Below are positions 20,975-61,400 of a stretch of DNA of 64,000 nucleotides, one piece after another. The stretch comes from Candidatus Woesearchaeota archaeon (GTDB lineage: Archaea > Nanobdellota > Nanobdellia > Woesearchaeales > GW2011-AR15), in NCBI GenBank assembly GCA_038874655.1, contig JAVZBY010000003.1, forward strand, positions 22,718 to 86,717, given 5' to 3'. Position numbers and translations under genes: made by a program. Each line of letters starts with the position of its first letter. Within the stretch, counting starts at the first letter, position 1. Under the pieces are notes generated by a model. That model made no database searches. It was not told the origin of the DNA and was given only the letters and a program-made list of their open reading frames with translations.

Positions 20975-21073
20975 AAAAAAGCAACTTTAAAAATTTTTAT
21001 AAAAACAAGTAAAAACAAAAAAATTAATAAAAGAAAAAAAGAAAGAGTAAATAAAAATTTTTAAACAAATTCT

Positions 21074-21307: not shown

Positions 21308-21435
21308 TTTTTAACCTCCTTTAACATTTCATTGGTGAGAATTAAAAGAATGTCTCCCCACCGAGTATAATATAGAATAACAACTATATAAATCTTACGA
21401 TTTTGTAGACGAATAATATAAAAAAATTATAAAGA

Positions 21436-29717: not shown

Positions 29718-29821
29718 AATTTATAAAATTTCATAAATTAAAGAAAATGAAAAAAAATTTAAATCATATAAAAAAATATTTAAACAATTTATTTTTACAA
29801 AATTCTTATCATCTTAATTCT

Positions 29822-32800: not shown

Positions 32801-33469
32801 TATTTAGATATTATTGTTCCAGAGCAATTAACAATTTATCAAAATGAAACAATAAGACAAGTAATTAACATAAAAAATGAAGGCAACACCACTTTAAGAG
32901 GTATTATATTATCTGCATCCACAAATTCGAGCTCTGCTGATTTAAGCTTTTCTAATTCATTTATCTCAGAATTAAAACCAAATGAAATTGTAAAAACAGA
33001 TTTAATCATAAAAGATTACAAATTAAAAAACAATTATGAGATAATAATATGGGCTAATGTCACAGAACCTAATTACAGAGATAAAGCAATTATTTATGTT
33101 AATGCAATAGAAAAAACTAGAGGAAATCAAAGTATAACTGCAACAAAAATAACATTTGCACAAGATTTATTATCAAGTAATCCTGAATGCATAGAATTAA
33201 ATGAATATTTAAAGAAATCACTTAATTATATGGAAGCAAAAAATTATGAAGAAGCTGAGAAAATTATTGATTCTGTAATCCAAGGCTGTAAATACTTAGT
33301 AAGTCAAAGTAAATTAAAAGAAGAAAGTCCAAAAGGGTTGTTATTAAATTTAAAAATAACCAATCCCTATATAAGAGGTGCTATAATTTTAACAATTTTA
33401 GCAATAATAACTATTGTAGCTATGACAATTAAATTAAAAAAATCAAATAACGAAGAAAACAATCTATAA
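29822..33469 (+). CDS. Cell-surface protein with multiple cadherin/Ig-like repeats, N-terminal signal peptide and C-terminal TM anchor
   Basis: Signal MKSHAFNPRKKRMAFIFFIINLLFLILIL from ATG 29822; the called ORF extends back to 29642, and alternative ATGs lie at 29747 and 29642. Recurring module boundaries NDPPFF / NHPPII / NDPPII / NPPVINN / NRPPILNN; very many NxS/T sequons; C-terminal IILTILAIITIVAMTI then KLKKSNNEENNL. Confidence 0.65.
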   Translation: MKSHAFNPRKKRMAFIFFIINLLFLILILNNVYSVDFSPVELSPKNATTLDNLICSWNTSLNPKVNVSWYNGSNLYSVVKETTSIQILNNFIARKGETWNCTVVEWNDANNIGSSSITIRNAPPFQPNVVNDTIEEDSTYIRDISTTDPDGDEIISYICIPNTFTINNGIISWTPTSSNVEPEKSKLYNFTCLTLDSEGLSNSKKFSLNVTARNDPPFFNPSLVNISKYENQKIQYIITASDEENPTGKFNLTFDNKICPYDSKTAYELVRINNYTFIFQVINNQTLPYSLVGNCSITLSLYDPMDTNISTNSSINIEVIAINHPPIITNIESKSRNYSQGEYFNLSINATDIDENELINFFVITPTCSFNPWNITILNNSRNASALLKATPLNESHIKCKQIKIRASDTKNAYSEVNLTLNITNVNDPPIIKEISNHINNSFSNINLSNLTAFAYVKFRYYINATDPDIEYGTDPSDSLTFNINSSLCFDCPFISINSNTGEINFTPNLDNIGKTYSYKVNVSDKYGLFDEKILKITILNNSVPYFNQTPPDIYAKEDILYTLKINATDKEDINVSFFLNTTLFNITNTGLINFTPTCQDVGNYSVLITIRDTYGAENSSIMRVYINMSPDLPIIIPIQNTTLFENEAYYLEIIASDDDLLCSQDDNLIFSYNFINGSESSLSDFIFENINNSGNYKALLSFQTILGSQGIYIINFSVVDNYNLKNSYLWELTVINRTNPPVINNITPYGSPYTNYSNGWRPRSNFLGDYTNINISEGMTIIFDHNSTDLDKNTLNFTWLRNNQQIGDKKNLSLFFDYESHGNYNITLIVSDIVNNRIANSVSFSWNISVRNNNRPPILNNSLPNITVNKTISIPNYFTCRDILPGYICDEPRFFDPDNDNLTFTHSNATKVSISINKNSISLTALELGNETITFYASDGTYTIESNPVIINVISLPEQNQQVSQSTSTRTSQSTNYVPYSVLQEVEKEKEIYLDIIVPEQLTIYQNETIRQVINIKNEGNTTLRGIILSASTNSSSADLSFSNSFISELKPNEIVKTDLIIKDYKLKNNYEIIIWANVTEPNYRDKAIIYVNAIEKTRGNQSITATKITFAQDLLSSNPECIELNEYLKKSLNYMEAKNYEEAEKIIDSVIQGCKYLVSQSKLKEESPKGLLLNLKITNPYIRGAIILTILAIITIVAMTIKLKKSNNEENNL

Positions 33470-40659: not shown

Positions 40660-41316
40660 TTAAACTTGTGTTGTATAAAATTCTATTGTACTATTTTCAT
40701 ATGTTCCTGCAGGTAAATCTACTGGAATTAGTACATTAACATCAACAGCAATACTATCTTCTGTATCAGGATAATATTTTAATCGTTGACATAATGTAAC
40801 ATTCTCTGATAATTCTACCCATGGCCAAGTATATAATCCTGTTGCACATGAATTTGCTTCATTCTCTCTTGCTACAACAGTCAAATTATAACCTAATGCA
40901 CCATTATAATTATTGAAAAAACTTTTTGCAGATGGTCCTCTTACTGAAACAGATACATTAACATTACCATTATTTTCTATTATAAAGCTTGTTGGTGTTG
41001 TATTTCCTGTCCAGCAATCAGTATTATCAATAAAAGTTAATCCTGCTGTTAGATTTGCAAATGTCTTTCCATTTAAATTAATTTCATCACAACTAGAATT
41101 TATAAAGCCTACTCCAAAATCTATTACAGAATTTAATAATGCTATACTAATAGAATTTTGCACACTTAAATTTATTCTACCCATTTCTGTTGCTTTTGCT
41201 GTCGGATATGTGCTAATCGCAATTTTATTTAATTGATTCATCAATAAAAAAGTAGATGAAACAGAAAAAAAAATTGATAGCATTATAACAAATGCTAAAA
41301 ACTTATTACTAACCAT
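40660..41316 (-). CDS. Signal-anchored N-glycosylation-rich protein, tandem paralog of 41337..41987 (candidate filament/pilin-like subunit)
   Basis: Shares with its neighbour INLSVQNSISI...DFG.GF.N.SC.EI...NLTAG..FID..DCWTGN.TPTS.I.ENNGNVNVSVS.RGP... and an identical C-terminal NVLIPVDLPAGTYENSTIEFY; pilin-type signal not demonstrable. Confidence 0.5.
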   Translation of the reverse strand: MVSNKFLAFVIMLSIFFSVSSTFLLMNQLNKIAISTYPTAKATEMGRINLSVQNSISIALLNSVIDFGVGFINSSCDEINLNGKTFANLTAGLTFIDNTDCWTGNTTPTSFIIENNGNVNVSVSVRGPSAKSFFNNYNGALGYNLTVVARENEANSCATGLYTWPWVELSENVTLCQRLKYYPDTEDSIAVDVNVLIPVDLPAGTYENSTIEFYTTQV

Positions 41317-41336: not shown

Positions 41337-41987
41337 TTAAACTTGCACAGCATAAAATTCAATAGTGCTATTTTCATAAGTTCCTGCTGGTAAATCAACT
41401 GGAATTAATACATTAACATCTATTGCAATACTATCTTGTGAGTCTGGATAATATTTTAAACGAGTGCAAAATGATGCATTATTATTTAATTGCACATAAC
41501 TTGATTGTAATGTGCCTGCACATGAATTTGCTTCATAATTCCTTGCCAATGCTGTTAAATTATATGTGAAAGAACCATTATACATACCAAAAAATGCTCT
41601 TGGATCTGGTCCTCTTATTGAAACAGATACATTAACATTACCATTATTCTCTACTATTATACTTGTTGGTGTTTTGTTGCCTGTCCAACAATCACTTGTA
41701 TCAATAAAAGCTGCGCCTGCTGTCAAATTTGCTGCTGTCTTGCTATTTGATAAAATCTCTGAACAACTAACATTAACAAAACCTGTGCCAAAATCAACTG
41801 TTGCATTATAAAGTATTATACTAATTGAATTCTGAACTGATAAATTTACTTTTCCAGGAACATTTTGTGCTTGGCCAGTAATCCCAAAAGGATTTAATTT
41901 ATTTAATGAATAAATTGTTACTCCCAAAGAAACAACAATTGACATAACCAAAAAAAGTGCTAATGTTCTATTTGAAATATCATCCAT
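41337..41987 (-). CDS. Signal-anchored N-glycosylation-rich protein, tandem paralog of 40660..41316
   Basis: See the paralog entry; roughly 55-60% aa identity by eye across the full length. Confidence 0.5.
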   Translation of the reverse strand: MDDISNRTLALFLVMSIVVSLGVTIYSLNKLNPFGITGQAQNVPGKVNLSVQNSISIILYNATVDFGTGFVNVSCSEILSNSKTAANLTAGAAFIDTSDCWTGNKTPTSIIVENNGNVNVSVSIRGPDPRAFFGMYNGSFTYNLTALARNYEANSCAGTLQSSYVQLNNNASFCTRLKYYPDSQDSIAIDVNVLIPVDLPAGTYENSTIEFYAVQV

Positions 41988-42403: not shown

Positions 42404-43570
42404 TTAGTTATTTCTCTTTTTAAGAATAAAAATAATCAAAATTATATTCAATAAAATTAAAATTATAACACCTATAATTAAAATATTTAATTGAAATTTA
42501 TTTCCTTGTCCAATAACTTTTGCACTCACATAATTTTTAAAATTCACCGAATCTGGTGATACATAAGCAGTATAAGTTTTTTCAGAAATTTTATCTTCAT
42601 AAATAACCTTTGTAGAGAGCTCATATTCACCTATAGTTAAACCTTCTGTATTCCAATACGCATTCATAATTGAAGTTGATTTTTCATTAATACTAACAGG
42701 AATTGCATTAAAAGTTGAAATTAATTTATTATCTTTAAAAACATCAACTTTTCCTTCTGCCTTAATTTGCTTGTTCCATTTATTTCTTAAATAGATATCT
42801 AGTTTTGCAATTTGACCTATTTTAAAATTATTTATTTCTATTTTTTCAATTTCAACTTCTAAATTTCCAACATCAAATTTTTGATAGAATTCTAAAATCT
42901 TAGAATCATATTCTAATGTTGCTTCTAAAACATAGCTTCCAGAATGTTCAGTTTGCCAGGTTAAAATAAAACTTTCTTCTTTATTCGACTCTATTGACTT
43001 TGATTCTGATGTTGCTTTATATAATTCTTCATTTGTTGGACCCTTAATTACTAAATTAATTTTTGCATTTTCTATTTTTTCCTTTCCAAAATTTTTTATT
43101 GCAAATGTAAAAATAATAGGCTCATTAACTTTTGTATTTGTTATAAATAAATTACCCTCTGCATATTTTCCAGGATAGGGTACATTAACTATTATTTTAT
43201 GCATTACTGCAGGAGCTGCCATTATAACATCATTTTGCATTTCTCTAGGTAATTCCAAAACAATTAAAGAACATGATCTTTCACCTGGAGGTAATTCATT
43301 TGGTAGTTGAATCTTATAATTAATCCATGTTTCTTTATTTTCAATAATCATCGTTTCTTTATCAAGTGAAATATATTTTGCTAATTCTCCTTCTTTCGAA
43401 ATTATTATTTTAGTAGGTGTATCATCAACAACTACTCTAAAAGCCCCTTCTTGTTGAAATTGATTAAAATCAAACTTATTTTTAGCAGGAGCTATTCCTA
43501 ATCCAAAGATCATATTTATATTTACTAAAAACATAATTAACATAATAAATTTTAAAAATATTTTTCTCAT
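42404..43570 (-). CDS. Surface protein (388 aa) with N-terminal signal and C-terminal TM anchor; translationally coupled to the giant gene
   Basis: Its start ATG overlaps the stop of the 2485-aa gene (ATGA at 43567-43570); C-terminal NILIIGVIILILLNIILIIFIL then KKRNN. Confidence 0.5.
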   Translation of the reverse strand: MRKIFLKFIMLIMFLVNINMIFGLGIAPAKNKFDFNQFQQEGAFRVVVDDTPTKIIISKEGELAKYISLDKETMIIENKETWINYKIQLPNELPPGERSCSLIVLELPREMQNDVIMAAPAVMHKIIVNVPYPGKYAEGNLFITNTKVNEPIIFTFAIKNFGKEKIENAKINLVIKGPTNEELYKATSESKSIESNKEESFILTWQTEHSGSYVLEATLEYDSKILEFYQKFDVGNLEVEIEKIEINNFKIGQIAKLDIYLRNKWNKQIKAEGKVDVFKDNKLISTFNAIPVSINEKSTSIMNAYWNTEGLTIGEYELSTKVIYEDKISEKTYTAYVSPDSVNFKNYVSAKVIGQGNKFQLNILIIGVIILILLNIILIIFILKKRNN

Positions 43571-46500
43571 GCCTGCTCACCCACTATATAAATTGTTACA
43601 TATTTTGGGCCGCCAGGCTCATACATCGGAACTGTTATATTAATATCAATTTGTGCAGTATCATGTTCATCACTATAATTTAAATTTCTTAATAATGTGG
43701 AATTTGAAATTGATATATCTGTCATATTTGCCCATTCTGTTTGTGAATTTGCATAATCAAAAGAAGGCATTTCACTAGTATTATCTGCTTTATATCTAAA
43801 ATAAATTGTATTTAAAGGCGCCATTATAAATGGTGATTGATTAGCACCAATTCTTGTAATATTAACAACAATATTACCATTATTCTCTATTATTAGAGGT
43901 GGATAACCATTATCAGTATCTTTTGATTCTAAAATATTCATTATTCCAAAATCAATTGAATTAACAGTTAAATTTATACTTAAAAAAGATTCAATTGTAA
44001 AGTTCCATGCTAGACTCCATAGACTATAATTAAAACCATCATATGCCCGAACACTCCAATTAATTAGTCTATCAACACAAAAATCATAATTTGGTTGATA
44101 ACTTGTATCAGAAACATTAATACTAACATCTGGACCACATTCGAAAGTAGAGGAAAAACTAATATTTATTGTATAATTTATATCATCATAATCTAAATCT
44201 GAGCTATTAAACAGAAATAAAGGTTTTCTTTCATGTATAGTATGATTATTGTTTGTTGGGGTTATTAATATTGGAATAGTTGGTGGACTATTAACAATTG
44301 TTGTTTTTGTTGAATTATAATTACTTGAATCAATACCATCGTATGCTTTTATAGTGCAGTTCCATATTTCATTCTTTTTTGTATTAGAACTGGCTATAAA
44401 TGATATTAAAGTATTTGTGTTATTATTCACACTAACATTTCCTGATGAAAATAAATTAGTTCCATTATACCAAAAATATTCAACTCTTAAAGAGGTGTTT
44501 AAATCATCAACGATAGTTGCATAACAATTTAAATTTGATGTGGTATTTGGCTCATTAGGTAAAATTTGTATGTTTGAAACTCTTGGAGGGGAATTTAAAT
44601 TAATTCTTACCTTTGTACTATTTTTAGTAATTCCATCTTGATAACCATCATTAGGTGTTACTGAGCAAATTAGTTCATCGTTTAAATTAAACGCATATCT
44701 TAATAATTCATTATTAGTTCTATTTAATATACCATAATTATATTCATTTAGAATTTCTTCATCAGATAAAATATAATTATATATTTTGATTTCATCTATA
44801 AACCCATTATAAGGTGCTTTTCCTGTATTATGTAAAGCCCAATTTGACAAACCACTAGATGCACCAATAACTAAATTTAAAATTGAGTTTGAAATATTAC
44901 TATTCACTTGAGAAGAATTTTTATTCATACCATTAACATATAATTTAAAAATATCTCTATTTAAAGTTAATAACAAATGTGTCCAATTATTTTGTTTTAT
45001 CGTCTCATTACTAATCACTTCATTTCCAAACTTTCTAATAATTAATGCTGAATCTGTTGTGTTTATTGAATATCTACCACCTAATATTAAATTTTCCCTG
45101 GAATCAAAGGTACCTACTTGAAAAACATCCTTATAATTAGATAAATCTAAAGTAAAATTATAAACCTGTGAACCTGTTTTATTCAATTTAAATACAAAAA
45201 TAACATTATTTGTTGAATTTAACCAATAAAAACCTAGGCCATAAATATCATTATTTGAATCAATTAAAATTTTCTGTATGCTATCATTAAATGGTGTTGG
45301 ATTTAAAATATAATTCCATAAGTTATTACCATTTTTATCAAACTTCATCACATTAATATAGCTATCTATTGGTTGATTTGCGATTCCTGCAATTATTAAA
45401 TTATCTTCACTATCTACCTTCATATCTTGAAGTGTATCATTATATATTGTTGGGTTTGTAGTAATATTGAAAAGATTCACTCCTGTAGGTGAAAATTTCA
45501 CTATTCTATACTGAAAATTACCTAAAAGTTGATCATATCCTCCTATATAATACGAACCATCTAATGCCTTAACAATAATATTAGCAGAATCAATTCCTGA
45601 ACTAATTTGAGGAGTATAATTCCACAAATTTACACCATTTTCATTAAAAGCTGAAACAAACCAATCATAAACAGTTGTTGCTTTAATCCCCACTGCAATT
45701 ATCAATGTATCATTATAAACTAAAACATCATTATAAAGATCTGTTCCTGATGTCGGATTAAATGTTCTATTCCATAAATAAGTTCCTGTAGAATTATATT
45801 TAACTAAATAATGACTATGCCCTACTACTGAATCATATATATATCCTGCTACATAAATGTTATTTCTTGAATCTACATCTACACCTAAATATCTATCATG
45901 ACCTAAATTTGGATAAGTATAATTAAAAAGTAAAGTTCCATTTGGTGAAAATTTCATAATTATTTGATCAATAGAATAAGGGTTATTATTACCTGCTCCA
46001 ACAGCTATAAAATTATCTTCATTATCAACTATTAAATCTGTTAAATATTCATAATATGTATCATCATTTAAATCATTTAAAAAGTAATTTTTTCTAAATT
46101 CATATAAAGTTTTGTTTTTATTATTTTCATTTAAAGAAACTCCTGGATAACCATTAAGTAAAAATATTGAATATATTCCATTACTCAGAATATTATCTAT
46201 TACATCAAACCTTGTAGGCTTTATCCATAATGAAATAGAGATATTATTACTTTTTAGTAAATTTGTATTATTAACATAAATAAAATTAGTGCCATTAAAA
46301 TTATATCCTCCAAATACCTTACCAAATTTTCTTGACCAATTTAAATTATTTGAAAAATTTATACTAGTATTATAGCCACTGTAATCTTTTGTAAAAGTAT
46401 TATTACTTCCTCCTTCAAACGGCAAATACAACAAATAAATACTTTGATTATTTTTATACCAAGTAGTTATATTTACAACTTGATCTCCATCTGCATCAAA

Positions 46501-49500
46501 AACATTATTAGCATTACAAGTCAAATTATTAAAAGTATAAGCAGGATCAGGCGTGATATAAGGATTATCATGTGTTGGTGCATCATTAAGTTTTATTTTC
46601 ACACTTGAGCTGTTTTTAGTTATGCCATCCTGATAACCATCATTGGGTGTTATAGAACATTTCCATTCATCTTCAAAATTAGTATTTGTAAAAGATATAA
46701 TATTACTTAATTTTCCTGAAATTCCTAAAAGATAATCATTATATATCTGCTGATCTGATAATACAAAATTATACACCTTAACCTCATCAATTGTACCATT
46801 AAAAAATTGTGTATTTGGTAAACCTATTCCCCCTCTTCTACCTATGTTGATAGATTTATTTACAGTATAAATAACATTACCATTTGCTTGCTTACTATTA
46901 TCCAAAACCCCATTTACATATAAAAGTAATTTCGAATTATCATATACTCCTACTATATAATACCATTTTCTTTTTCCTAATACTGTATTAGAGGTAATAT
47001 TTTGAGATGCAAAACCATTGTTATTCGATGCGAAAAACCTAACTCTACTTTCATTAGAAATTTGTAATCCATAGCCATCATCTCCCCCACCATCTTCATC
47101 AGTACTTATAATCATTTGATAAGTATTATTATCAAAAAGATATATCCATGCAGAAACACTAAAATTATTATAAGGCCTTAAATTAGGATTTGAAGGAAAA
47201 ACAATATATTGATAATTTCCATTAAACACATAAGCACCTCCTATTATACCTGCAGTTGTGTCAAATGTAGCATTAACCACAGATGCATTAGTAAAACTTA
47301 CATAATCTAATGTTGAACCATTTTTTGAATATGTTCCAGTTATTGAACCTCCTTCAAACGGCAAATACAACAAATAAATACTTTGATTATTTTTATACCA
47401 AGTAGTTATATTTACAACTTGATCTCCCTCTGCATCAAAAACATTATTAGCATTACAAGTCAAATCACTAAAAATATTTGCTGGATTAGGTGTGATATAA
47501 GGATCATCATGTGTTGGTGCAGAAGGATATATTTTAACAGAACTACTGTTTTTAGTTATCCCATCTACATAGCCATCATTTGGAGTTATAGAGCATTTAA
47601 TTTCATCATTTAATTTTAAATTTAAATATTTTAAATCTAAAAATTGTTCCTTATTTGAGAAAGAAAAAGGATAAATTATTGAATTAATATATGAAATAGA
47701 GAGAGGAATATTAAAAATTTTAACTTCATCAATAATACCATTAAAAAATTCTGTATTAGGTTGATAAGTACCACCTATTCTACCTATATTTATAGAATTA
47801 TTAACAGTATATACTACATTTCCATTTCCTATTTTTCTACCAACTAATAAACCATTAATATAAAGAGATATTTCAGAATTATTATAAACTCCAACAATAT
47901 TATACCATATATTTTTTCCTAAAGTAATATTTGAAGTTACATTTTGTAAAGCATAGCCATTAGAATTTAAAACTGCAAAGCTAACTCTTCCTTGATCAGT
48001 TATTCTTAAAAAATATCCATCATCATTACCTCCATCACTATCTGAAGAAATAATTGTTTGATTTGTATTATTTGAATTTAAACTTATCCAAACTGAGATA
48101 CTAAAATTATTATAAGGCCTTAAATCATTATTAGAAGGCACGGAGATATAATCATAATCCCCATCAAAAAAATATGCTCCTCCTATTATACCTGAAAACT
48201 GCAAATATGTTGCATTTACTACACTAACATTTTTTAAAGAAACATAATCTCTTGTAGAACCATTTGAAAAATTATCGCCACTAGTTGAACCTCCTTCAAA
48301 AGGTAAATTTAATGAATAAATACTTTTATTATTAATATACCATGTTGTTATGTTTCTAATAAAATGATCCTCATAATCTATTAGATTTGTAGTATCACAA
48401 AAGATTGTTTTATTTAAAGTTGGTGTTTGTGGGTTAATTTGTGGATTATCATGTATAGGTTCTGTATTATTAATAAAAAACCACAATCCTTCTTCGTAAA
48501 AATAAATTATATCTGGAAACTCTCCTATTTCAGAGGAATATATAATTCTATCACTATTATTAAACTCTATACAATGAACTATTAGATCTATAGCTTGAGA
48601 TGCTAAAATATGATAATATACTGAAATATTATGTTCTCTAACAACACAAGATTGTGGTAAAGTAATATTGTTATTAAGATTAGAAATAATTTTAACATTG
48701 GTAACATTATTTGGTTTATAATAAATTGAGGAGATATAATAATCATTTGCTTCACTACCAGTAAACCAATTACCATCAAAGAAAGCTTGTGCATTAACAC
48801 ATCCTCCTACTGCATTACAACCACTTATATTACTAAATTCAACATAATAATAATAACTAGGATCATAAGCATAATCACTTACATAAGCTAAATCATTTTC
48901 AAACTCAAAAAGCAAAGTAGCATAACCAGCTTTAATCATGTAATTTTTTAGATAAGCAGTTTGATTACATTCAAAATTTGGAATAAACAATTTTTTGATT
49001 TTAACAGAGTTTTCAGATAAATCAGAGTAATTATAAGTGATATTATTAACATCAACTATTAATAATTTATCTAGGAGAGGGTAATTACCACAACTTAGGT
49101 TTAAAAATAACATTTCATCAAAAGTTTGATTATTATCAACAGAGATTTCAGTCCAATTAGCATTAGTAGAGCTAATAGATAAATTAGCAATTCCGCTAGT
49201 ATTAAAAGCCACAATCCATATTTCATTATCTTTTAGATAGGTGTAAGGATTCAGTACAATTATAGAAATTTCAAAAGTTTGATTACTTAGATGAGGCACA
49301 ATCCATTCAATTTTATCAATTAAGCCATTATCATTAGTATCAAAATAATTAACATTTTCAAACAATATTTTCTGATCATCTTTAAACCAATAAACCTTTA
49401 TATTTTCTTTTTTAGATTCTTTAATATTAGTATAAGCTAGGACATTTTCATAATGCAAATCTGATGAAATAACAACATGTTTTTTATTTTCATTTAATAT

Positions 49501-51024
49501 AATTTCATCAGCTTTAGGTGGTTCAGTATAGAAAGATAATTCTAAGATCTCACTTTCATGATTACTTTCAGATAAATTTTCAGAATCATTTTTCTCAAAG
49601 ACTAAAACAACATCATTAACATTATCTAAATTCAAGTTTATGTTATTAAGATTTTGTAATTCAGAATTAAGTTCATTCAATTTATTTAACAATAAATTAG
49701 CTTTATCTTTGCTTACAGGTTTTTCTAATTCTTTTAACTCTGATTTAATTTTTTTAACTTTATTAAATTGTTCAACATCAATTAAGTTTTTATCTGCATA
49801 CACATATGGCTTAATATCATCATTACTAAAAGAGATGTTAAAAGCAGATTTAGGCAATATAGTATAATTAGTAATAGACAAATTAATTTTCTTTTTCCAT
49901 AAAACTGGCTCATTAATTTTAGCACTATAATTAAAATCAATAACACCAATTTCCTCAGAACTTAGATTCAAAGTTAAATTAATTATTTGCAATGTTTCAT
50001 TAACTAAAGTTTCATTCAAAGTTTCATTTAAGAAAGTTTCATTTAAACTCTCATTAACAAAAACATTTTCAATAAAAGTGTATTCAATTGAACTTAAATT
50101 TAAAACAGCATTCTCAACTATAATCTGTAAAACTATTTCATCGCCATAATTATACAATTTGCATGTTTCTAAACAATAATTACTGAATAAAAGCACTCTT
50201 TCTTCAATAGTTATATTTTCACTAGCATTACTCTCTGTGATTGTTTCATTAATAATTATTTCTGGAATAATTACATCTGTAAAATTGGTTTCATTAAACT
50301 CATATGCTATATTTGTATTGTTATCTATAATATTTTCTTCAATTATAGTTTCATTTAATATTGTTGTTTCATTTAAACTTTGATTTAAACTTATTTCAAT
50401 TATTTCCTCATTAATAACTTCATGACTATTATTTAAAGAAATATTTTCTAAATTAGAACTTTCTCCAACAGAAAAATTTTCATTAATTATATTATTTTCT
50501 TCAATGGTTTGAGTTTCTTCTGTAATTTCAATTAACTCTTGATTATTAACAGAGGGATTAACCTCATTATTAGTTAAATTATTTTCTTGATTATATTCTT
50601 GAACAATATCTTCAACAACTAAACCTGTTAAAATATTTTTTCTATTAAGTTCATTTGAATCAAAAACCAATTTTGAATTATTACTTTTATCAATCAATAA
50701 AACCTTTACAGAACCATTTCCTATTATAGAACCAGTTATTTTTAGAGATGTTAAATTTCCATTAACATTAAATCTTAGAACATTATTATCATAAAACTCT
50801 TGATTAACATTAATAACTTCTTTTATTTCTGTATTGCCAAAAATTAAAAACCCTGTTAAATTTTGACCAAATAAATTATAAAATAAACCTATTGAAAATA
50901 TTGTTATTATAAATAATAACACATACGACTCATGCTTCATTAACCTCTTTATTTTTCTATCTCTTTGCTCTCTCCTCTCTGCCTCTCTAATTGCCTTTAT
51001 AAACTCTTGTAAGGGTGATGTCAT
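43567..51024 (-). CDS. Giant (2485 aa) signal-anchored surface protein with an Asn-rich N-glycan linker, three LamG/concanavalin-like modules and SBBP-type beta-propeller repeats
   Basis: N-terminal cytoplasmic basic stretch then TM YVLLFIITIFSIGLFYNLF. Repeated NETL/NETF sequons. Three copies of a roughly 310-aa module contain GGAY(F/V)F(D/N)G...SVW(I/Y)...DEVK(I/V)(F/Y)N (LamG-like). Several NIYVAGY...LVKYN..G..LWN repeats (SBBP-like). SD GGGGTGAT lies 5 nt before the ATG. Confidence 0.8.
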   Translation of the reverse strand: MTSPLQEFIKAIREAERREQRDRKIKRLMKHESYVLLFIITIFSIGLFYNLFGQNLTGFLIFGNTEIKEVINVNQEFYDNNVLRFNVNGNLTSLKITGSIIGNGSVKVLLIDKSNNSKLVFDSNELNRKNILTGLVVEDIVQEYNQENNLTNNEVNPSVNNQELIEITEETQTIEENNIINENFSVGESSNLENISLNNSHEVINEEIIEISLNQSLNETTILNETIIEENIIDNNTNIAYEFNETNFTDVIIPEIIINETITESNASENITIEERVLLFSNYCLETCKLYNYGDEIVLQIIVENAVLNLSSIEYTFIENVFVNESLNETFLNETLNETLVNETLQIINLTLNLSSEEIGVIDFNYSAKINEPVLWKKKINLSITNYTILPKSAFNISFSNDDIKPYVYADKNLIDVEQFNKVKKIKSELKELEKPVSKDKANLLLNKLNELNSELQNLNNINLNLDNVNDVVLVFEKNDSENLSESNHESEILELSFYTEPPKADEIILNENKKHVVISSDLHYENVLAYTNIKESKKENIKVYWFKDDQKILFENVNYFDTNDNGLIDKIEWIVPHLSNQTFEISIIVLNPYTYLKDNEIWIVAFNTSGIANLSISSTNANWTEISVDNNQTFDEMLFLNLSCGNYPLLDKLLIVDVNNITYNYSDLSENSVKIKKLFIPNFECNQTAYLKNYMIKAGYATLLFEFENDLAYVSDYAYDPSYYYYVEFSNISGCNAVGGCVNAQAFFDGNWFTGSEANDYYISSIYYKPNNVTNVKIISNLNNNITLPQSCVVREHNISVYYHILASQAIDLIVHCIEFNNSDRIIYSSEIGEFPDIIYFYEEGLWFFINNTEPIHDNPQINPQTPTLNKTIFCDTTNLIDYEDHFIRNITTWYINNKSIYSLNLPFEGGSTSGDNFSNGSTRDYVSLKNVSVVNATYLQFSGIIGGAYFFDGDYDYISVPSNNDLRPYNNFSISVWISLNSNNTNQTIISSDSDGGNDDGYFLRITDQGRVSFAVLNSNGYALQNVTSNITLGKNIWYNIVGVYNNSEISLYINGLLVGRKIGNGNVVYTVNNSINIGRIGGTYQPNTEFFNGIIDEVKIFNIPLSISYINSIIYPFSFSNKEQFLDLKYLNLKLNDEIKCSITPNDGYVDGITKNSSSVKIYPSAPTHDDPYITPNPANIFSDLTCNANNVFDAEGDQVVNITTWYKNNQSIYLLYLPFEGGSITGTYSKNGSTLDYVSFTNASVVNATFDTTAGIIGGAYVFNGNYQYIVFPSNPNLRPYNNFSVSAWIYLFDNNTYQMIISTDEDGGGDDGYGLQISNESRVRFFASNNNGFASQNITSNTVLGKRKWYYIVGVYDNSKLLLYVNGVLDNSKQANGNVIYTVNKSINIGRRGGIGLPNTQFFNGTIDEVKVYNFVLSDQQIYNDYLLGISGKLSNIISFTNTNFEDEWKCSITPNDGYQDGITKNSSSVKIKLNDAPTHDNPYITPDPAYTFNNLTCNANNVFDADGDQVVNITTWYKNNQSIYLLYLPFEGGSNNTFTKDYSGYNTSINFSNNLNWSRKFGKVFGGYNFNGTNFIYVNNTNLLKSNNISISLWIKPTRFDVIDNILSNGIYSIFLLNGYPGVSLNENNKNKTLYEFRKNYFLNDLNDDTYYEYLTDLIVDNEDNFIAVGAGNNNPYSIDQIIMKFSPNGTLLFNYTYPNLGHDRYLGVDVDSRNNIYVAGYIYDSVVGHSHYLVKYNSTGTYLWNRTFNPTSGTDLYNDVLVYNDTLIIAVGIKATTVYDWFVSAFNENGVNLWNYTPQISSGIDSANIIVKALDGSYYIGGYDQLLGNFQYRIVKFSPTGVNLFNITTNPTIYNDTLQDMKVDSEDNLIIAGIANQPIDSYINVMKFDKNGNNLWNYILNPTPFNDSIQKILIDSNNDIYGLGFYWLNSTNNVIFVFKLNKTGSQVYNFTLDLSNYKDVFQVGTFDSRENLILGGRYSINTTDSALIIRKFGNEVISNETIKQNNWTHLLLTLNRDIFKLYVNGMNKNSSQVNSNISNSILNLVIGASSGLSNWALHNTGKAPYNGFIDEIKIYNYILSDEEILNEYNYGILNRTNNELLRYAFNLNDELICSVTPNDGYQDGITKNSTKVRINLNSPPRVSNIQILPNEPNTTSNLNCYATIVDDLNTSLRVEYFWYNGTNLFSSGNVSVNNNTNTLISFIASSNTKKNEIWNCTIKAYDGIDSSNYNSTKTTIVNSPPTIPILITPTNNNHTIHERKPLFLFNSSDLDYDDINYTINISFSSTFECGPDVSINVSDTSYQPNYDFCVDRLINWSVRAYDGFNYSLWSLAWNFTIESFLSINLTVNSIDFGIMNILESKDTDNGYPPLIIENNGNIVVNITRIGANQSPFIMAPLNTIYFRYKADNTSEMPSFDYANSQTEWANMTDISISNSTLLRNLNYSDEHDTAQIDINITVPMYEPGGPKYVTIYIVGEQA
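46409..46526. repeat. Intragenic direct repeat, copy 1 (118 nt, 117/118 identical to 47348..47465); part of a roughly 940-bp tandem module repeat
   Basis: Seen directly: cctccttcaaacggcaaatacaacaaataaatactttgattatttttataccaagtagttatatttacaacttgatctccatctgcatcaaaaacattattagcattacaagtcaaat. Confidence 0.85.
47348..47465. repeat. Intragenic direct repeat, copy 2 (see 46409..46526); a third, diverged copy lies near 48290
   Basis: Same sequence with a single a/c difference; flanking roughly 150 nt remain about 80% similar. Confidence 0.85.
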
Positions 51025-51236
51025 TTTTTATCACCCCTCTTCTTCTTTAATGCCCTATTATATATTGTCCAAATAGTTCTATCATCTCTATTCAAAGAAT
51101 CTGCAATATCATGATAACTCATATTAAGAGTTTCTTTCATGTAAAAAACAACAGATTCCATAAAAGAAAAATCTCTATTATTAAATATAGACAGAGGTAT
51201 ATTTATTTCATTATTATTCTTTTTACCCACCCTCAC
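51021..51236 (-). CDS. Small HTH DNA-binding protein (sigma-70 region-4/LuxR-like helix-turn-helix), first gene of the surface-protein operon; uses a GTG or an internal start
   Basis: ETLNMSYHDIADSLNRDDRTIWTIYNRALKKK shows an HTH pattern like sigma region 4. The stop overlaps the giant gene start (ATGA) and its 3' end encodes the giant gene's SD. The annotated start is GTG with no upstream SD, so the transcript may be leaderless. Confidence 0.45.
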   Translation of the reverse strand: MRVGKKNNNEINIPLSIFNNRDFSFMESVVFYMKETLNMSYHDIADSLNRDDRTIWTIYNRALKKKRGDKK

Positions 51237-51243: not shown

Positions 51244-51350
51244 AACTTACATTGTAAGTATTTATACTTTTTGGTTTTTTACTTACATTGTAAGTATTAT
51301 AAAAAAATAAATTAAAATAAAAAATAAAATATTTACTTACAATGTAAGTA
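51244..51350. promoter_or_regulatory. Three copies of a 17-bp palindrome TACTTACA(A/T)TGTAAGTA (51244-51260, 51280-51296, 51334-51350) in the divergent region between the HTH gene and tRNA-Asn
   Basis: Seen directly; half-sites TACTTACA/TGTAAGTA are exact reverse complements; centre-to-centre spacings are 36 and 54 bp; copy 1 ends 7 nt from the GTG start of the HTH ORF. Confidence 0.55.
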
Positions 51351-51427: not shown

Positions 51428-51500
51428 GCCTCGATAGCTTAGTAGGTAGAGCGATGGACTGTTAATCCATAGGTCGCCAGTTCGAGTCTGGCTCGAGGCG
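51428..51500 (+). tRNA. tRNA-Asn (anticodon GUU), 73 nt, no encoded CCA
   Basis: Acceptor stem GCCTCGA/TCGAGGC plus discriminator G. D-arm AGCTTAGTAGGTAGAGC. Anticodon stem-loop ATGGA-CTGTTAA-TCCAT, giving GTT. T-arm GCCAG-TTCGAGT-CTGGC. Followed by an oligo-T tract. Confidence 0.85.
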
Positions 51501-51540
51501 CTTTTTAAAAAATTTTTTAGAAAAAACATAAAATTTCTTT

Positions 51541-53986: not shown

Positions 53987-56900
53987 ATGAAAAAAAATCA
54001 AGTTTCTATTTTTTTAATAATTGGTATTATGATTATAACACTCGTTTTATCGATAATCTTATTAAATAAAGATAATAAAGTTGGTTCTACCTATAGTTCT
54101 GTATTATTTACAACAAAAATACAAGAATATTCCAATTTTAGAGATTTATGCATTGAGAAATCAGTTAATAACGCATTAACATATAATCTCATAAAAGAAG
54201 AAAACAAAAAAGATATAGAGAATTACATTAAATATTATCTATATTATTGCTTATTAGATAGCCCATTAAAAAACACTGATTACAATATACAAATAGAAAC
54301 TCCTTTAAGTAAAGATTATATTATAGAAGTTAATATTTATGAAGACAGTATTCATGTAAAAGGAGAATTACCTATAAAAGTTAGTTATCAAGATAATAAT
54401 AAAGAATTTAAAAAATTTGAATATATCTTAAAAAAAGAAAAAATTGAAAAAATAAAAGAAAGTCAAAAATTTAATTTAATATCTACAGATAAATATTTCA
54501 TACTTCAAATACCAGAGAACACTAAAATTTATTCAAAGGATAATTTTCAGATTGACTTATTAAGTGCAAAATTTGATGATAAAGAAAAAATATCCCAAAA
54601 CCCTTATTTAGAAGGAACAAAAGTATATTATATAACAGATTCAAAATTTAGCAATAAAGTAAAAGCATGTATTAATTATATTGAAGATATGTTAAATGAA
54701 GATAGTGATGAAAAAAATCTTGCACTAGCATGGTATGATGAAGAAAGAAAAGTTTGGGTTGCAAGAGAAAGTGAGATAAATACAAAAAACAAAATAATTT
54801 GTGCAGATTTTGATCATTTTAGTCCAGTTGCTTTAGTAAAAAATACTTACACTGAAGAAAAAAATAAAGAAAAAACTTTAAAATGGGATTTTTTTATAGA
54901 ACACATACATAGACCATGTTCTTCTTCACCTGATAATATCCCAAAAGGAAAAATAATTGAACAAAGACCAGAAATAGATAAAAGATACACCGGATTATTT
55001 AACAAAAATATTGGAACAAAAGAATATGAAGAATTTTATGAAACTAGATGGAAATTTAATGATTTTAAAGAAAAAGATGAAAGAGATGCCCCACATAGAT
55101 ATGGTGTTTATGCTACTCCACAAATGTATCAAACATTATTAATAAGAGGACATGACAATTTAAATACTGAATATATTCATATTTCAGGGATTAGAGCATT
55201 AAAAAGTGAATTATATAATGAACAAAATATTTGGAAATTTGAAGATTTAAATGAAAATCAAGAGATTAATATACAGGAAACAAAAAATGATAGAATAACG
55301 GGAAGTGATATGAGTTTAATAAAATATAAATATAGTAATATAAATGATTGGATAATAATTCCTAGCTTTGAACCTAATGAACATGCTGAATTATCTATTG
55401 AAGATTGGGATGATGATGATTTATATTCAATAACAGATAATTATTGTGATGATAAACCCTGTCTAAAATGTATTGATATAACTAATGATAAAAATGCTAT
55501 TGAAGTATCTTGTGATTTATATAAAGAAGATTGCCTAAAAAAATGTAAATCAAAAGCAAAAGAAATTTATTTAGAATTCGAAAAAAAAGGTTGGGCTCCT
55601 TGGAATCCAAGTAATGATGGTATTTTAGATTATAAATATATATCTAAAGAGCAATTAATTCCTAACTTAGTAGAATGTAAAATAGAACATGGAACAGTTA
55701 TTGGAACAATTATTGATTGTAATATTGACGAAACTGATATAGCTACACCAATGTTTTGGGGTTATGGAAATAAAAAAACAGGATTAAGATCTAGTCAAGG
55801 TAATTATAAAGATAGCCCAGATTTTGGTTATGAAGGTGCTGGAAATAATGATCATCCTGTCACTTATGATTTTGAGATAATTTCACCTATATGTGATGAA
55901 ACTGAAGCAAAATTAAAAATAAAATGTTCTGAAAAAGACTTATGTATTATTAATTTAAACAACCACGAATTTAGATGTGAAAATAAAGAATGTATCATGG
56001 ATGTGAAAAACCTATTAATAGGATCTGAAAAAGGGAAAAACAAAATAACAGGTTATGTAATAAACAAAAGAGAAAGTCAAGATGTCTGTGCTTATGTTTC
56101 TGCTGAATTAATATTAACTGAGTGCCCTTCAAAAGAAAAAATAGAATGTGGTGATGGAATTATTAATCAAAACTGGGAACAATGTGATATTAATCCAGAA
56201 GGAATTGGAAAAGAATGTGATAATGGACAATGTATAATGTCAGGTGATTTAAAATGCACATGTCCTTCCATAGGAGTTTATTGTGGTGATGGAATTATTA
56301 ATCAAAAATTTGAGCAATGCGATTTAAAACCTGATGGTTCAGGAGTTAATTGTCAAAAAGGGATTTGTATAATGACTAGCAAACAAAGATGTATATGTAA
56401 AGAAGAAAAAAATTACTGCGGTGATAACATAATTCAAAGACCTAATGATGATGGTTTTATTGAAGAATGTGATGGCACAGATGACAAATCTTGTCCTGGA
56501 CAATGTAAAAGTGATTGTACTTGTCCTAATAGCATAAATACTTTATGTAAGGTGTGTCATTGGGATCAAGGCCAACCTGGTTGTTTTAGAGAATATACCT
56601 CTAATTGCCCAAACTCTTGGAATGGACACAATTCACATCAGTATGATATACTCGTTTGTGATCCTAACAATCCTCCAATATATTCAAATGGCAAAAAGGT
56701 TGATCCTTCAGAATGCAAACCTGAGTCTTTATGTAATCCAAAATGTTATGGAACAGGTTTATGTAATAAAAATAATATATGTGATTATAAAGAAAGTTGT
56801 GATAATTGTCCTCAAGATTGTGGAAAATGTCCATCTCCTACACCCCAACCTAATGAATGCAAAAAAAATGAAATAAAATGTGGAAACTATTGTTGTAGTA

Positions 56901-57112
56901 GTAATGAAGAATGTAAAAATAATATATGTATAAAAAAAGATAATCCACCTAAAGAAGAAAATCCACAACCTCCAAACCCTCCTGAAAATCCACCTAATCC
57001 ACCAACAAATAAATGCAAAGAAGGAGAAATTGAATGTGGTACAGAATGCTGTAATTCATATAAACCTATATGTGAACAAAAAAACAATAAATATCAATGT
57101 AAAAACAAATAA
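53987..57112 (+). CDS. Signal-anchored Cys-rich surface protein (1041 aa) with three tandem Myxococcus-type cysteine-rich repeats and a Pro-rich C-terminal segment
   Basis: SD AGGAG 8 nt before ATG. TM IFLIIGIMIITLVLSIILL. Repeats ECGDGIINQNWEQCD..., YCGDGIINQKFEQCD..., YCGDNIIQRPNDDGFIEECDG... (CGDG...EECD is the pattern of the Myxococcus Cys-rich repeat). NPPKEENPQPPNPPENPPNPPTN near the end. Confidence 0.65.
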   Translation: MKKNQVSIFLIIGIMIITLVLSIILLNKDNKVGSTYSSVLFTTKIQEYSNFRDLCIEKSVNNALTYNLIKEENKKDIENYIKYYLYYCLLDSPLKNTDYNIQIETPLSKDYIIEVNIYEDSIHVKGELPIKVSYQDNNKEFKKFEYILKKEKIEKIKESQKFNLISTDKYFILQIPENTKIYSKDNFQIDLLSAKFDDKEKISQNPYLEGTKVYYITDSKFSNKVKACINYIEDMLNEDSDEKNLALAWYDEERKVWVARESEINTKNKIICADFDHFSPVALVKNTYTEEKNKEKTLKWDFFIEHIHRPCSSSPDNIPKGKIIEQRPEIDKRYTGLFNKNIGTKEYEEFYETRWKFNDFKEKDERDAPHRYGVYATPQMYQTLLIRGHDNLNTEYIHISGIRALKSELYNEQNIWKFEDLNENQEINIQETKNDRITGSDMSLIKYKYSNINDWIIIPSFEPNEHAELSIEDWDDDDLYSITDNYCDDKPCLKCIDITNDKNAIEVSCDLYKEDCLKKCKSKAKEIYLEFEKKGWAPWNPSNDGILDYKYISKEQLIPNLVECKIEHGTVIGTIIDCNIDETDIATPMFWGYGNKKTGLRSSQGNYKDSPDFGYEGAGNNDHPVTYDFEIISPICDETEAKLKIKCSEKDLCIINLNNHEFRCENKECIMDVKNLLIGSEKGKNKITGYVINKRESQDVCAYVSAELILTECPSKEKIECGDGIINQNWEQCDINPEGIGKECDNGQCIMSGDLKCTCPSIGVYCGDGIINQKFEQCDLKPDGSGVNCQKGICIMTSKQRCICKEEKNYCGDNIIQRPNDDGFIEECDGTDDKSCPGQCKSDCTCPNSINTLCKVCHWDQGQPGCFREYTSNCPNSWNGHNSHQYDILVCDPNNPPIYSNGKKVDPSECKPESLCNPKCYGTGLCNKNNICDYKESCDNCPQDCGKCPSPTPQPNECKKNEIKCGNYCCSSNEECKNNICIKKDNPPKEENPQPPNPPENPPNPPTNKCKEGEIECGTECCNSYKPICEQKNNKYQCKNK

Positions 57113-58335: not shown

Positions 58336-58456
58336 AAAAATAGATAAAACACTATAAAACGAAAAAATATTTAAACTTGATTTCTTATCAAAAAAATGTA
58401 TACTGGTTTATAAATTATTTTGTTATTATAAATAGGAAAATCAAGAGGTGGGGAGA

Positions 58457-61400
58457 ATGAATAAGAAAAAAATTTTCTTATTTTTCATAAGTATAATCAT
58501 ATTATCTATTATCTTAAACTTTACATTTGGACAATTTAATACATTAAAAAAAGTTGCTTGTACAGATGATATGAAACAATGTCCTGATGGGAGTTATGTT
58601 ACTAGAAACCCTCTTAATAATTGTAATTTTTATCCTTGCCCTGGAGAAGAGACTAACATAAACCAATGCATTGATAGTGATGGATTAAATTTTACAAAAA
58701 AAAGCACTACAATTAATAATCTAGAAAGAAAAACTGATAGTTGCTTATTAGATATAAATAATAAAGAATCATTTTATATTTATGGAAAATATTTAGCTGA
58801 ATATTATTGTAATAATAATAAAATTAATGTCACTTATATAGATTGTCGCTATGGCTGTATTGATGGTGCATGCTACACTAAAGAACCAAATTGCACAACT
58901 ATTGGAACAGTAATGTATGTTGATCCTTATGGTTATGGTTATATTGGCTGTGATATTATTGCTGAAGGGCCAATTGATCCTGATAAAAGTATATGCATTA
59001 GTTCAAAAACAAGAAAAAATATTTCTTTATTAATACAGGAAAAAGTTAAAGAAAATATTTATCATTATTATAACACATTAACGGGTTTAGATCCAAATGA
59101 AGAAGTTAGAGTTTATATCAGAACTTTTTATAATGGAACTAAAGAATGTTATCCTCCATTAAATAAAAAAGAATCACTCTATTCTATACAAACAAATACC
59201 ACAAATCAAGAAACAAATACAACTAATTTAAATTGTAGCAAAGAAGGAGAAATGTGTGGTGGCTTTGCAGGTTATTTATGCTGTGATGGATTAAAATGTA
59301 AATATGAGAATGGTTTTATAACTTATCCTGATGAATCTGGAGTTTGTGTTCCTATACAAGAAAAAATTCAATGTCAAGATACTGATTATTATAATCTAAG
59401 CATTCCTGGAAATTCAACCAAAGGTAATATAATTAAAAAAGACACATGCTATTATGATGATAATTTAAAAGAATTTTCAGCTTCAAGATCTGGAAAATAC
59501 CTAGCAGAATATTATTGTGATAATAACAATATTAATGTTAGCTATGAAGAATGTTTTATGGGTTGTTATAAATCTGCATGTTATGATAAACTCCCTAAAT
59601 GTAAAACTCTTCCAACAACCATAGACAATCAAGGAACTATTGTATGTAACATTTTAGTTGAGGGCCCTATTGATCAATTTAATAGTTATTGTATTGGTGA
59701 AAGCACTCGTAAAAATAAAAGTTTTGCTTATCAAAGAGAAATAAATCAAACAACAGATTTATATTCAACAACCTTAACAAATTTAAACCCCACTGAAAAA
59801 GTAAGAGCCTTCATAAAAAGTTATTATTATAATTCTACATTTGAGTGTTATCCTCAATTAAATAGTCTCTCACAAAACAATGTGAATAATTTATTAGAAG
59901 AATCCCTATCATATAAAAGTGCTTATTGGATATGTCAAGATGGAACTGAAGTCAATCAAGAAAGTCAAACCTCTTGTAATACTTATGCAGGTTGGTTTAC
60001 AATCGCAAATGAATTTTGTAAAGATAAATGCTCTTTAATTAATAATTCATGTGGTATATTAAATTTCATAATCGGTGAACAATGTAATAATATTGAACAT
60101 GAATCCCCCCTAATATCTTATACCTTAGAAACAAATAAAAAAGTATATGAATATGGTGAAACTGTAAAAATAATTGGCACAGTAATCGGTACTAATAACT
60201 CTGAAGTAAAAACTTGGATTCAAACACCTGATAAAAAAATAAGATTATTAAATGTTAATAAAGAATGTGAACGATGCACTTTAATAAATTGTATTAACAA
60301 ATGCTACTATACTAGTGAATATAAAATAGGTGATGAAACCTCATTTAGAAGCAATGAAGAAATAGAACCTCCTACACCAATAAGACAAGATACTAGTACT
60401 TCTACCAACATGATGACTGGATATGTTGTACTACCTAATCAAGTATATAATGTTTTTTCAAGAGCAATAACTATTATCAACAATACTGAATATGTTAATA
60501 ATGCAACAACTTCTTTTGGTGTATCTATTAATGAGACTAATATTGAGCTAAAGGTTAACGCAAACGAATTACCTTTTGTGGCAGTCCTATTAAAGAATAA
60601 GGAAAAGCTACCTGTAGAGATCCAGGTTAAAGATATAAAAATCTATAAATATATAAATAATGAAAAAGTAGAATTAAAAGATTTATGTAATTCAAATATA
60701 AAAAATAGAGATGTAAATATAGGTTCTAATGAACTTATAGAGATTTCTAGTTGGAATAAAAAATTAAAAAATCAAGAAAATAATGAATGTAACTATAATG
60801 CAAACTCTGGAATTTACGAAGCTGAAGTTGAATACTCAATAAAAAATACTGATACAAGCATATTCAAATCTAAAACATTTTTAGTATTAGACCCTCAAGC
60901 AAATAGTTGTAATCCTGTTTGTAAAGCAATTTCTACTAATAATGAAGGATGGTATAATTCATGTACAGGTGTTTTATTAAAGTATGAAAAATGTAGTATT
61001 ACCTCAAAAGAATACAATCAACCTAAAGAAAATGGAGAATATTGTTTAGCGAATAAAGAGTGTATTAGTAATAGTTGTTCTAATAATAAATGTACAAAGA
61101 AAGAAAGCATTTTAGATATTATAAAAAGATGGCTAAATGGTTGCACTCCAAGTGATGAAATATGTGATGGAAAAGATAATAACTGCAATAATTTAGTTGA
61201 CGAAGGCTGTATATACTGTAGTGATACTGACAAAGGATTTAATGTATATACAAAAGGTATAGTCAATGGAAGAGATAATATAAATATTTATACAAAAACA
61301 GACAACTGCAGAGATAATTATAATTTAACTGAATTTTATTGTTATAAGGACATAGTTTACAATAAAACATATAGATGTCCTTATGGATGTAATGATGGAA

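Follow-up and report, generated by a model that had tools for sequence, protein, structure and literature searches.

Probable recent gene conversion of a short patch between two lectin-bearing units of a giant woesearchaeal surface-protein gene

Within the 64-kb stretch of woesearchaeal DNA that we analysed (the window), a single gene for a 2485-aa surface protein (43567..51024, minus strand, from its open reading frame and translation) carries two nearly identical copies of a 118-nt patch, and we consider it probable that these copies reflect a recent, short, non-reciprocal intragenic gene conversion between two old paralogous segments. One copy lies in unit 2 of the protein (47348..47465, minus strand; aa 1187-1226, ..LTCNANNVFDAEGDQVVNITTWYKNNQSIYLLYLPFEGG), where it makes up the 3' two-thirds of the N-terminal half of a split Ig-like domain, and the other lies in unit 3 (46409..46526, minus strand; aa 1500-1539). 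A preliminary description of this DNA had reported two 118-nt stretches with one differing base; nucleotide comparison agrees and places that base at 46489 (A) and 47428 (C) on the plus strand, corresponding to the codons GAT (Asp1512) and GAG (Glu1199). The mismatch divides the patch into exact runs of 80 nt and 37 nt. The copies are spaced by 939 bp, one module as described, which is 313 codons and thus in frame, and the verbatim protein repeat that had been noted, DQVVNITTWYKNNQSIYLLYLPFEGGS, is present at aa 1201-1227 and aa 1514-1540. The 80-mer is the longest exact repeat of the window, with two matches against none expected in 100 shuffles.

The near-identity is narrowly bounded. It is limited to 118 nt of the 939-nt interval, or to 174 nt at 94% identity if the shoulder that adjoins the patch towards the 5' end of the gene is included (46527..46582, minus strand, partner 47466-47521), in which 9 of 56 nt are mismatched and the synonymous differences per site (pS) take an intermediate value of 0.24. 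Directly downstream of the patch, identity between the copies over 120 nt is 28%. The diverged third copy that had been placed near 48290 is also there: it is the N-half of unit 1 (48290..48463, minus strand), 942 bp beyond the second copy, and has 63% nucleotide identity over 174 nt.

When codons 1188-1225 are compared with codons 1501-1538, all 37 codons at same-residue positions are identical and the lone difference is non-synonymous. The shared codons include the rare TTG, used four times (13% of Leu codons), and CCG (3% of Pro codons), and the chance of 37 identical codons out of 37 is about 10^-8.4 given local window codon usage; permuting the differing codons or bases gives P ~6e-4 for so long a clean run. 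An internal control is supplied by the C-half of unit 2 (46594..46662, minus strand, partner 47530-47598 in unit 1; KCSITPNDGY.DGITKNSSSVKI), which lies 25 codons upstream of the patch. Here 22 of 23 residues are identical, yet synonymous divergence is saturated (pS 0.61) and 9 of 22 same-residue codons differ, as against 0 of 37 in the patch, so that conservation of the protein does not by itself preserve codons. Units 1 and 2 as a whole, with 57% amino acid identity, share 109 of 176 codons at same-residue positions (pS 0.53), and outside the patch their nucleotide identity is ~54-73%. Moving upstream from the patch, synonymous differences per site rise stepwise from 0 to 0.24 to 0.61. The patch carries the statistical signature of gene conversion: synonymous differences are significantly fewer in the tract than in its paralogous flanks.

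On this reading, ~118 nt, and possibly up to 174 nt, would have been copied between the N-terminal Ig-like halves of units 2 and 3, by way of heteroduplex or synthesis-dependent repair between the copies. The units are ancient tandem duplicates, and purifying selection maintains the protein-level likeness of their Ig-like scaffold halves. The 56-nt shoulder may date from an earlier conversion or from one that was repaired in part. At its other end the patch runs precisely up to the PFEGG motif, which is the end of alignable homology, since LamG 2 and LamG 3 beyond it are too different to pair; a tract flush with the homology boundary would have to be resolved with very little homology on that side, which is plausible but counts to some extent against conversion. 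The 80-nt exact repeat would now allow a single 313-codon unit to be deleted or duplicated in frame, with its nested domains intact. Given this exact identity at a 313-codon offset, it is reasonable, from the sequence, to regard the patch as a potential substrate for in-frame expansion or contraction, but antigenic variation through the repeat is speculation. Local homogenisation as such is commonplace; what is unusual is the protein in which it occurs here.

That protein begins with an N-terminal signal anchor (hydrophobic aa 34-52) and an Asn-rich N-terminal region, after which come three units that each contain a LamG domain, a single Ig-like domain without interruption and, at the C terminus, a beta-rich region. 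The sequence has 126 N-x-S/T sequons. Pfam Laminin_G_3 (PF13385) matches it in three stretches (E 3.9e-73, 245 bits, cut-off 27.6), and no significant Pfam match came from the first 800 aa, the last 350 aa or the small Ig-like domain. Unit 1 (47530..48468, minus strand; aa 853-1165, with an HMM self-hit at 853-1167) consists of an Ig-like N-half, a LamG domain and a C-half (KCSITPNDGYVDGITKNSSSVKI), and unit 2 (46582..47529, minus strand; aa 1166-1481) has the same architecture. The AlphaFold model of unit 2 (pLDDT 75, pTM 0.81) places four strands ahead of the LamG jelly roll and roughly three behind it. Searched against the PDB with Foldseek, it matches concanavalin-A-like (ConA-like) lectin domains at E ~1e-10, as a jelly-roll beta-sandwich, with matches to neurotoxin HCN/NTNH, pentraxins, AbnA domain 4 and the trans-sialidase lectin domain. 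In the model we take Cys1190 and Cys1456 to lie in Ig-like strands B and F, and we infer that each unit is a LamG lectin domain nested in a loop of a small Ig-like domain. The uninterrupted Ig-like domain (44275..44592, minus strand; aa 2145-2250, with Cys2167 and Cys2223) has the unit motifs in the same order (L.C...D.D...Y.WY.NG ... W.C.I..DG). The unit HMM hits it weakly at positions 2-46 and 269-310, and a BLASTP comparison with the spliced N-half and C-half gives a weak match (E 0.028) in the N-half only.

Unit 3 (44590..46581, minus strand; aa 1482-2145) is built differently. Aligning the three units of roughly 940 bp, as the preliminary description had them, succeeds end to end for units 1 and 2 and fails for unit 3, which is ~2 kb long and not equivalent. 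Its order is N-half, LamG part 1 (to aa 1612), an insert of ~390 aa, LamG part 2 (aa 2002 on) and C-half (ICSVTPNDGYQDGITKNSTKVRI); the unit HMM aligns at positions 2-140 with aa 1480-1612 and at positions 177-318 with aa 2002-2145, and outside the 118-174 nt of identity unit 3 is not alignable with unit 2 at the nucleotide level. The insert (45022..46188, minus strand) parses into ~7 repeats of ~51 aa, typically of the form 'GxxLWNxT...D..VDS.NNIY.AG...' and terminating in '..VKF...'. It is likely a seven-bladed beta-propeller in which the repeats are the blades. Pfam gives weak hints of SBBP and PQQ_2 (E 0.03-0.19), and single-sequence AlphaFold predicts a periodic, all-beta insert at pLDDT 50-80; as the unit 3 model is poor overall (pLDDT 41), the propeller assignment leans mainly on the repeat periodicity. 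None of the 111 homologues retrieved was matched by the insert in a BLASTP search.

The same data bear on other explanations of the repeat. The patch was previously attributed to recent module duplication or homogenisation, and the second part of that proposal stands. A recent duplication of the whole 939-bp module, followed by divergence everywhere but in the patch, would account for a spacing of exactly one module and for copies that are tandem and in frame. However, it would have to accommodate the pS of 0.53 and 0.61, the latter in a C-half whose protein sequence is conserved, the 28% identity just downstream of the patch, and a LamG domain that in unit 3 is different and holds a 390-aa insert. 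Uniform decay cannot yield synonymous divergence of 0 and of 0.61 within 25 codons, and on the strength of this synonymous-site mosaic we reject whole-module duplication, which we find scarcely credible. A function at the nucleotide level, whether as an RNA element, a regulatory site or the template and variable repeats of a diversity-generating retroelement, is very improbable. Such retroelements are known in DPANN archaea and giant surface proteins are their typical targets; our gene resembles them in having a near-identical ~120-nt repeat pair tied to a large surface protein, and the lone mismatch, A versus C on the plus strand, formally fits adenine mutagenesis. But there is no adenine-specific pattern, adenines being unchanged at 45 of 46 positions on the plus strand and at 39 of 39 on the coding strand, no reverse-transcriptase domain occurs in the ORFs of at least 150 aa in the window, and both copies are in-frame structural parts of one protein. 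We therefore reject the retroelement, and likewise an RNA element, as the fold of the patch is unexceptional (z = -0.11) and Rfam finds a tRNA-Asn only.

Two further explanations place the cause in the assembly and not in the genome. The contig comes from a metagenome-assembled genome (MAG), its GatB being 100% identical to an NCBI protein of a Candidatus Woesearchaeota MAG on a 204-kb contig, and an 80-nt exact repeat falls in the k-mer range of assemblers, such that an assembler or polisher might have mis-resolved or homogenised the repeat and the copies, or the 939-bp copy number, might really differ. In the short-read Logan assembly SRR30574052 the same organism is present as fragments of 3.5-5.8 kb, none of which spans the repeat. 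Against this, the reading frame is open over 7.4 kb, and both the graded shoulder and the one mismatch within the patch have a biological look. Two Logan contigs, L003 and L004, overlap the window and match it at 100% identity; L004 reaches 323 nt into the giant gene from its 3' end and stops there. Distinct sequence flanks both copies on both sides, so that in any genome the segment between them must have the patch at either end, and only copy number is ambiguous; a collapse would therefore alter the number of 939-bp copies and not the existence of the repeat. We judge an artefact of this kind unlikely. A chimeric consensus, in which the assembler joined copies from different co-existing strain haplotypes, would also suit the metagenomic origin of the contig, and surface-protein genes often vary among strains. 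Yet the gene can be followed without a break and in frame, what lies between the copies is unique sequence, and the independent Logan fragments match the window without a mismatch, which makes such a chimera quite improbable. Intragenic gene conversion is the explanation that we favour.

The giant gene lies within a cluster encoding secreted or anchored proteins. Downstream, and overlapping it by 4 nt, is a probably co-transcribed gene (42404..43570, minus strand), whose 388-aa product has a CARDB domain, a signal at the N terminus and a membrane anchor at the C terminus. At the other end, the stop codon of a small helix-turn-helix ORF (51021..51236, minus strand; 46-71 aa) overlaps the start of the giant gene (ATGA). 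This ORF scores just below the 25.7-bit cut-off for Sigma70_r4_2 (E 1.5e-5, 25.0 bits), and look-ups of its 71-aa and 46-aa versions gave no match.

Searches of the protein collection, of the GTDB genomes and of the JGI metagenomes turned up no orthologue of the giant gene. An exact-product look-up of the 2485-aa protein gave no match, and scanning the GTDB genomes and the JGI metagenomes with back-translated patterns brought up no relatives. In homology searches the best match had 27% identity over the whole protein and 40% over the unit region, and the nearest relatives carry a LamG annotation and belong to Nanoarchaeota, Woesearchaeota and Pacearchaeota. As many as seven copies of the LamG-in-Ig-like unit occur in other giant proteins of DPANN archaea. 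One such protein, from an unrelated MAG (P0003 on L002), is encoded by an independent, related giant gene that shows similar patchy local homogenisation: its C-halves share 63 of 71 same-residue codons, compared with 44-62% elsewhere, and exact repeats of 47-67 nt occur in it. Another (P0001 on L001) has seven units, and its longest exact repeat is at most 23 nt; seven units lacking any longer exact repeat indicate that homogenisation is episodic and not a by-product of protein conservation.

It is conceivable, though we hold it doubtful, that the split Ig-like halves serve as built-in recombination junctions in giant DPANN adhesins, periodically homogenised in their nucleotide sequence and flanking each LamG insert. 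The idea draws on the N-halves of units 2 and 3 here and on the C-halves of the L002 gene. If it were true, entire lectin cassettes could be lost, duplicated or exchanged in frame at such junctions with the fold unbroken, which would provide recombination-based variation of host-attachment specificity in episymbiotic archaea. The patch itself offers a clean, small case of gene conversion within an archaeal surface-protein gene, and it is the sole place in the 7.4-kb gene where a lectin unit could be dropped or gained in frame by homologous recombination. It also alerts annotators to a site at which the number of units given by MAG assemblies may be wrong. Of greater use is a by-product of the analysis, the domain anatomy, in which LamG domains are apparently nested in Ig-like scaffolds and one of them is split by a propeller-like insert; this is a concrete framework for studying how presumed host-contact proteins diversify. 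Neither the patch nor the domain anatomy overturns current understanding.

Expansion of LamG or concanavalin-A-like lectin surface proteins has been reported in the ARMAN relative Mia14 (PMC5498576) and in nanohaloarchaea (PMC7443923). The 2485-aa protein resembles these DPANN proteins in its Laminin_G_3 domains and ConA-like fold, its very large size, its many N-glycosylation sequons, its predicted membrane anchor and its position in a cluster of secreted or anchored proteins, and it is a presumed host-contact protein. It stands apart in that its best homologues are only 27-40% identical, and the nesting of LamG in Ig-like and of a propeller-like insert in LamG is not mentioned in the passages on LamG of those two reports (PMC5498576; PMC7443923).

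Tandem-unit surface proteins in which DNA identity between units could drive in-frame gain or loss are also represented by the periscope-type proteins of bacteria, for example, SHIRT, Rib, SasG and Esp, which have DNA-identical tandem domain repeats, with many whole domains highly identical and length variation between strains documented (PMC8201768). In contrast to such whole-domain arrays, the identity here is limited to 118-174 nt of 939 nt, with 118 nt nearly identical in two copies only, the units are otherwise 57% identical at best, and the host is an archaeon. A further parallel is the intragenic concerted evolution by gene conversion described for repeat-bearing genes such as those of spidroins (PMC3933166). 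Unlike spidroin-type homogenisation, which is array-wide, the process would have affected one short tract in a three-unit array, but the outcome is the same kind of mosaic: a short tract without synonymous divergence amid diverged paralogous repeats.

The giant gene (43567-51024, minus strand) encodes 2485 aa, and the repeat finder places in it a three-copy family starting at 46409, 47348 and 48290 (spacings of 939 and 942 bp), with identities of 94% and 63% over 174 nt. Base-by-base comparison agrees with the preliminary description that two 118-nt stretches, 46409-46526 and 47348-47465, lie 939 bp apart and differ by one base (46489/47428). The diverged third module copy that it had reported near 48290 is the family member with 63% identity over 174 nt, and codon analysis showed that the peptide it had quoted does recur verbatim. 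This patch consists of exact runs of 80 and 37 nt and is bounded by a mismatch at each end. The 80-mer, present twice where shuffles predict zero occurrences, is the longest exact repeat of the entire 64 kb.

Pfam finds Laminin_G_3 in three stretches of the giant protein. When a profile made from the first two units is matched to the protein, it aligns at full length with aa 853-1167 and aa 1166-1481, and units 1 and 2 are therefore equivalent modules of 313-316 aa. Unit 3 begins and ends in the same way, yet about 390 aa break up its LamG, so that profile positions 2-140 fall at aa 1480-1612 and positions 177-318 at aa 2002-2145. Units start with about 58 aa of the form THDxPxIxP…C…DxxGD…NITTWYxNNxSIYxLxLPFEGGS (N-half) and end with about 25 aa, W/I-K-C-S-I-T-P-N-D-G-Y-x-D-G-I-T-K-N-S-S-S-V-K-I (C-half); the patch is the last two-thirds of the N-half in units 2 and 3. 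Given that each half carries one cysteine (876/1144, 1190/1456 and 1503/2120), that an uninterrupted domain at aa 2145-2250 has the motifs of the halves in matching order together with Cys2167 and Cys2223, that in an AlphaFold model of unit 2 (12-sequence alignment, pLDDT 75, pTM 0.81) four strands precede the jelly roll and about three come after it, that the protein has three N-halves, three C-halves and zero orphans, and that such units recur in giant proteins from other archaeal contigs (seven in P0001, three to four in P0003), we believe that the two pieces are halves of one Ig-like sandwich holding an inserted LamG. The two cysteines of the model lie within strands 22-26 and 288-296, which would be the B and F strands. 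For the LamG portion of the model, a comparison with the PDB gives ConA-like lectin domains (E about 1e-10).

The insert in LamG 3 (45022-46188, minus strand) divides into some seven repeats, each about 51 aa long. Given weak hints of SBBP and PQQ and a predicted fold that is all-beta and periodic, a beta-propeller is probable, in which case there would be three levels of nesting, propeller within LamG within Ig-like domain. A homologue of the insert was seen in none of the 111 retrieved proteins.

Codon analysis bears on the origin of the patch. Codons 1188-1225 and 1501-1538 differ once non-synonymously (Glu/Asp) and never synonymously over about 22 synonymous sites. If codons were drawn as the window uses them, all 37 same-residue codons would match with a chance of 10^-8.4, rare TTG (four times) and CCG are among the codons common to both copies, and permuting the placement of differing codons gave P of about 6e-4. 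The 19 codons preceding the patch have synonymous differences per site (pS) of 0.24, with a one-codon indel coming next, and the 120 nt directly past PFEGG are 28% identical. In the C-half 22/23 residues are identical, pS is 0.61 and codons differ at 9/22 same-residue positions; units 1 and 2 as wholes share 57% of residues and the codon at 109/176 same-residue positions (pS 0.53). Protein-level selection fails as the cause of the patch because the equally conserved C-half is saturated at silent sites. Recent module duplication, one half of the earlier reading, fails because beyond the patch the sequence of the 939-bp interval is either old or unrelated; homogenisation, the other half, is borne out by the absence of synonymous differences. 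At the sequence level, the pattern is typical of gene conversion, recent and confined to a short tract, between old paralogous segments; an older tract of about 174 nt possibly underlies it. The patch ends abruptly at the point where alignable homology stops, as would arise if heteroduplex could not extend into the dissimilar LamG sequences.

A function at the nucleotide level might also keep the copies identical, but the RNA fold z-score is -0.11 and tRNA-Asn (51428-51500) is the sole Rfam match in the window. A diversity-generating retroelement behind the pair is contradicted by the absence of a reverse-transcriptase domain from all window ORFs of 150 aa or more and by a difference at only 1 of 46 or 39 adenines between copies. 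An assembly artefact is conceivable but unlikely: unique sequence bounds each copy on either side, and thus the repeat must be real; only how many 939-bp units there are is open to doubt. The Logan assembly of SRR30574052, made independently from short reads, has two contigs that agree with the window at 100% over lengths of 3.5 and 5.8 kb, both ending outside the repeat.

Local homogenisation of this kind recurs but is not universal in the family, since P0003 shows patchiness and P0001 does not. The C-halves of P0003 share 63/71 same-residue codons, compared with 44-62% elsewhere, and its gene has exact repeats of 47-67 nt, several between distant units and including C-halves; this makes it a second case of patchy homogenisation, independent of the first. 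In P0001 (L001, seven units), protein identity is 70-77% for the scaffold halves versus 31% for LamG cores, same-residue codon matching is only 42-48% and exact repeats are all <=23 nt, a pattern of pure purifying selection. The P0003 gene also contains twelve tandem 72-nt (24-aa) repeats of 63-70% identity (L002 16886-17821).

The window, with a GC content of about 25%, is archaeal; among its products are a class I CCA-adding enzyme, GatA/GatB and HerA. A small helix-turn-helix ORF (51021-51236, minus strand; Sigma70_r4_2, E 1.5e-5) precedes the giant gene, its stop overlapping the ATG (ATGA). Matching arrangements lie upstream of two giant LamG genes that are unrelated, where the small ORF is of GerE/Sigma70_r4 type and 63 aa long (L001 9817-10008) or of HTH_5/MarR type and 90 aa long (L002 9732-10004), which suggests a conserved regulator/adhesin pair, possibly translationally coupled. 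In the window, upstream of the helix-turn-helix ORF and the giant gene, the 17-nt intergenic palindrome TACTTACAWTGTAAGTA occurs at 51244-51260, 51280-51296 and 51334-51350 (about 0.03 copies expected by chance) and may serve the neighbouring helix-turn-helix protein as an operator array. The tRNA-Asn (GTT; 51428-51501, plus strand) lies between this cluster and an upstream 738-aa gene, on the opposite strand; Asn makes up 14.6% of the giant protein.

The gene after the giant one, overlapping it by 4 nt, encodes a CARDB protein with signal and membrane anchor; next are tandem paralogous genes for 218 and 216 aa (40660-41316 and 41337-41987, minus strand; about 74% nucleotide identity, 30-nt exact repeat) and more anchored proteins, and for this reason the cluster looks like a cell-surface module. 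The paralogues have no Pfam match and hydrophobic segments at both N-termini, and may be secreted or pilin-like. Four further ORFs of 1000-1300 aa (3109-6780, 29642-33469, 53987-57112 and 58448-62302), one with Big_9, PKD and cadherin-like domains and three without a Pfam match, suggest a region dense in large surface proteins; long internal exact repeats occur in none of the four. Elsewhere, a 123-nt tandem duplication (21073-21318, minus strand; 83% identity, 34-nt exact run) lies in a small basic ORF (about 77 aa) made up of two copies of KVAKVGVKKExGYLYFVDxxGDxSRAKMARG, with no significant Pfam match.

Judging from other prokaryotes, eighty exact bases at a 313-codon offset would be enough for homologous recombination, which would either delete LamG 2 in frame, together with the scaffold halves on its two sides, or duplicate that segment; in either product each N-half would still be paired with a C-half. 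The process at the patch is well understood, while the protein, from a DPANN archaeon, is poorly characterised; the patch is of modest interest alone, and the domain nesting and the recurrence on L002 are more useful leads. LamG-like proteins have been described as plentiful among DPANN archaea and as candidates for a part in host interaction (PMC5498576, PMC7443923), a role that the giant protein may have. Lacking whole-domain, many-copy DNA identity, it bears only a limited likeness to the bacterial periscope proteins, in which such identity goes with documented length variation (PMC8201768).
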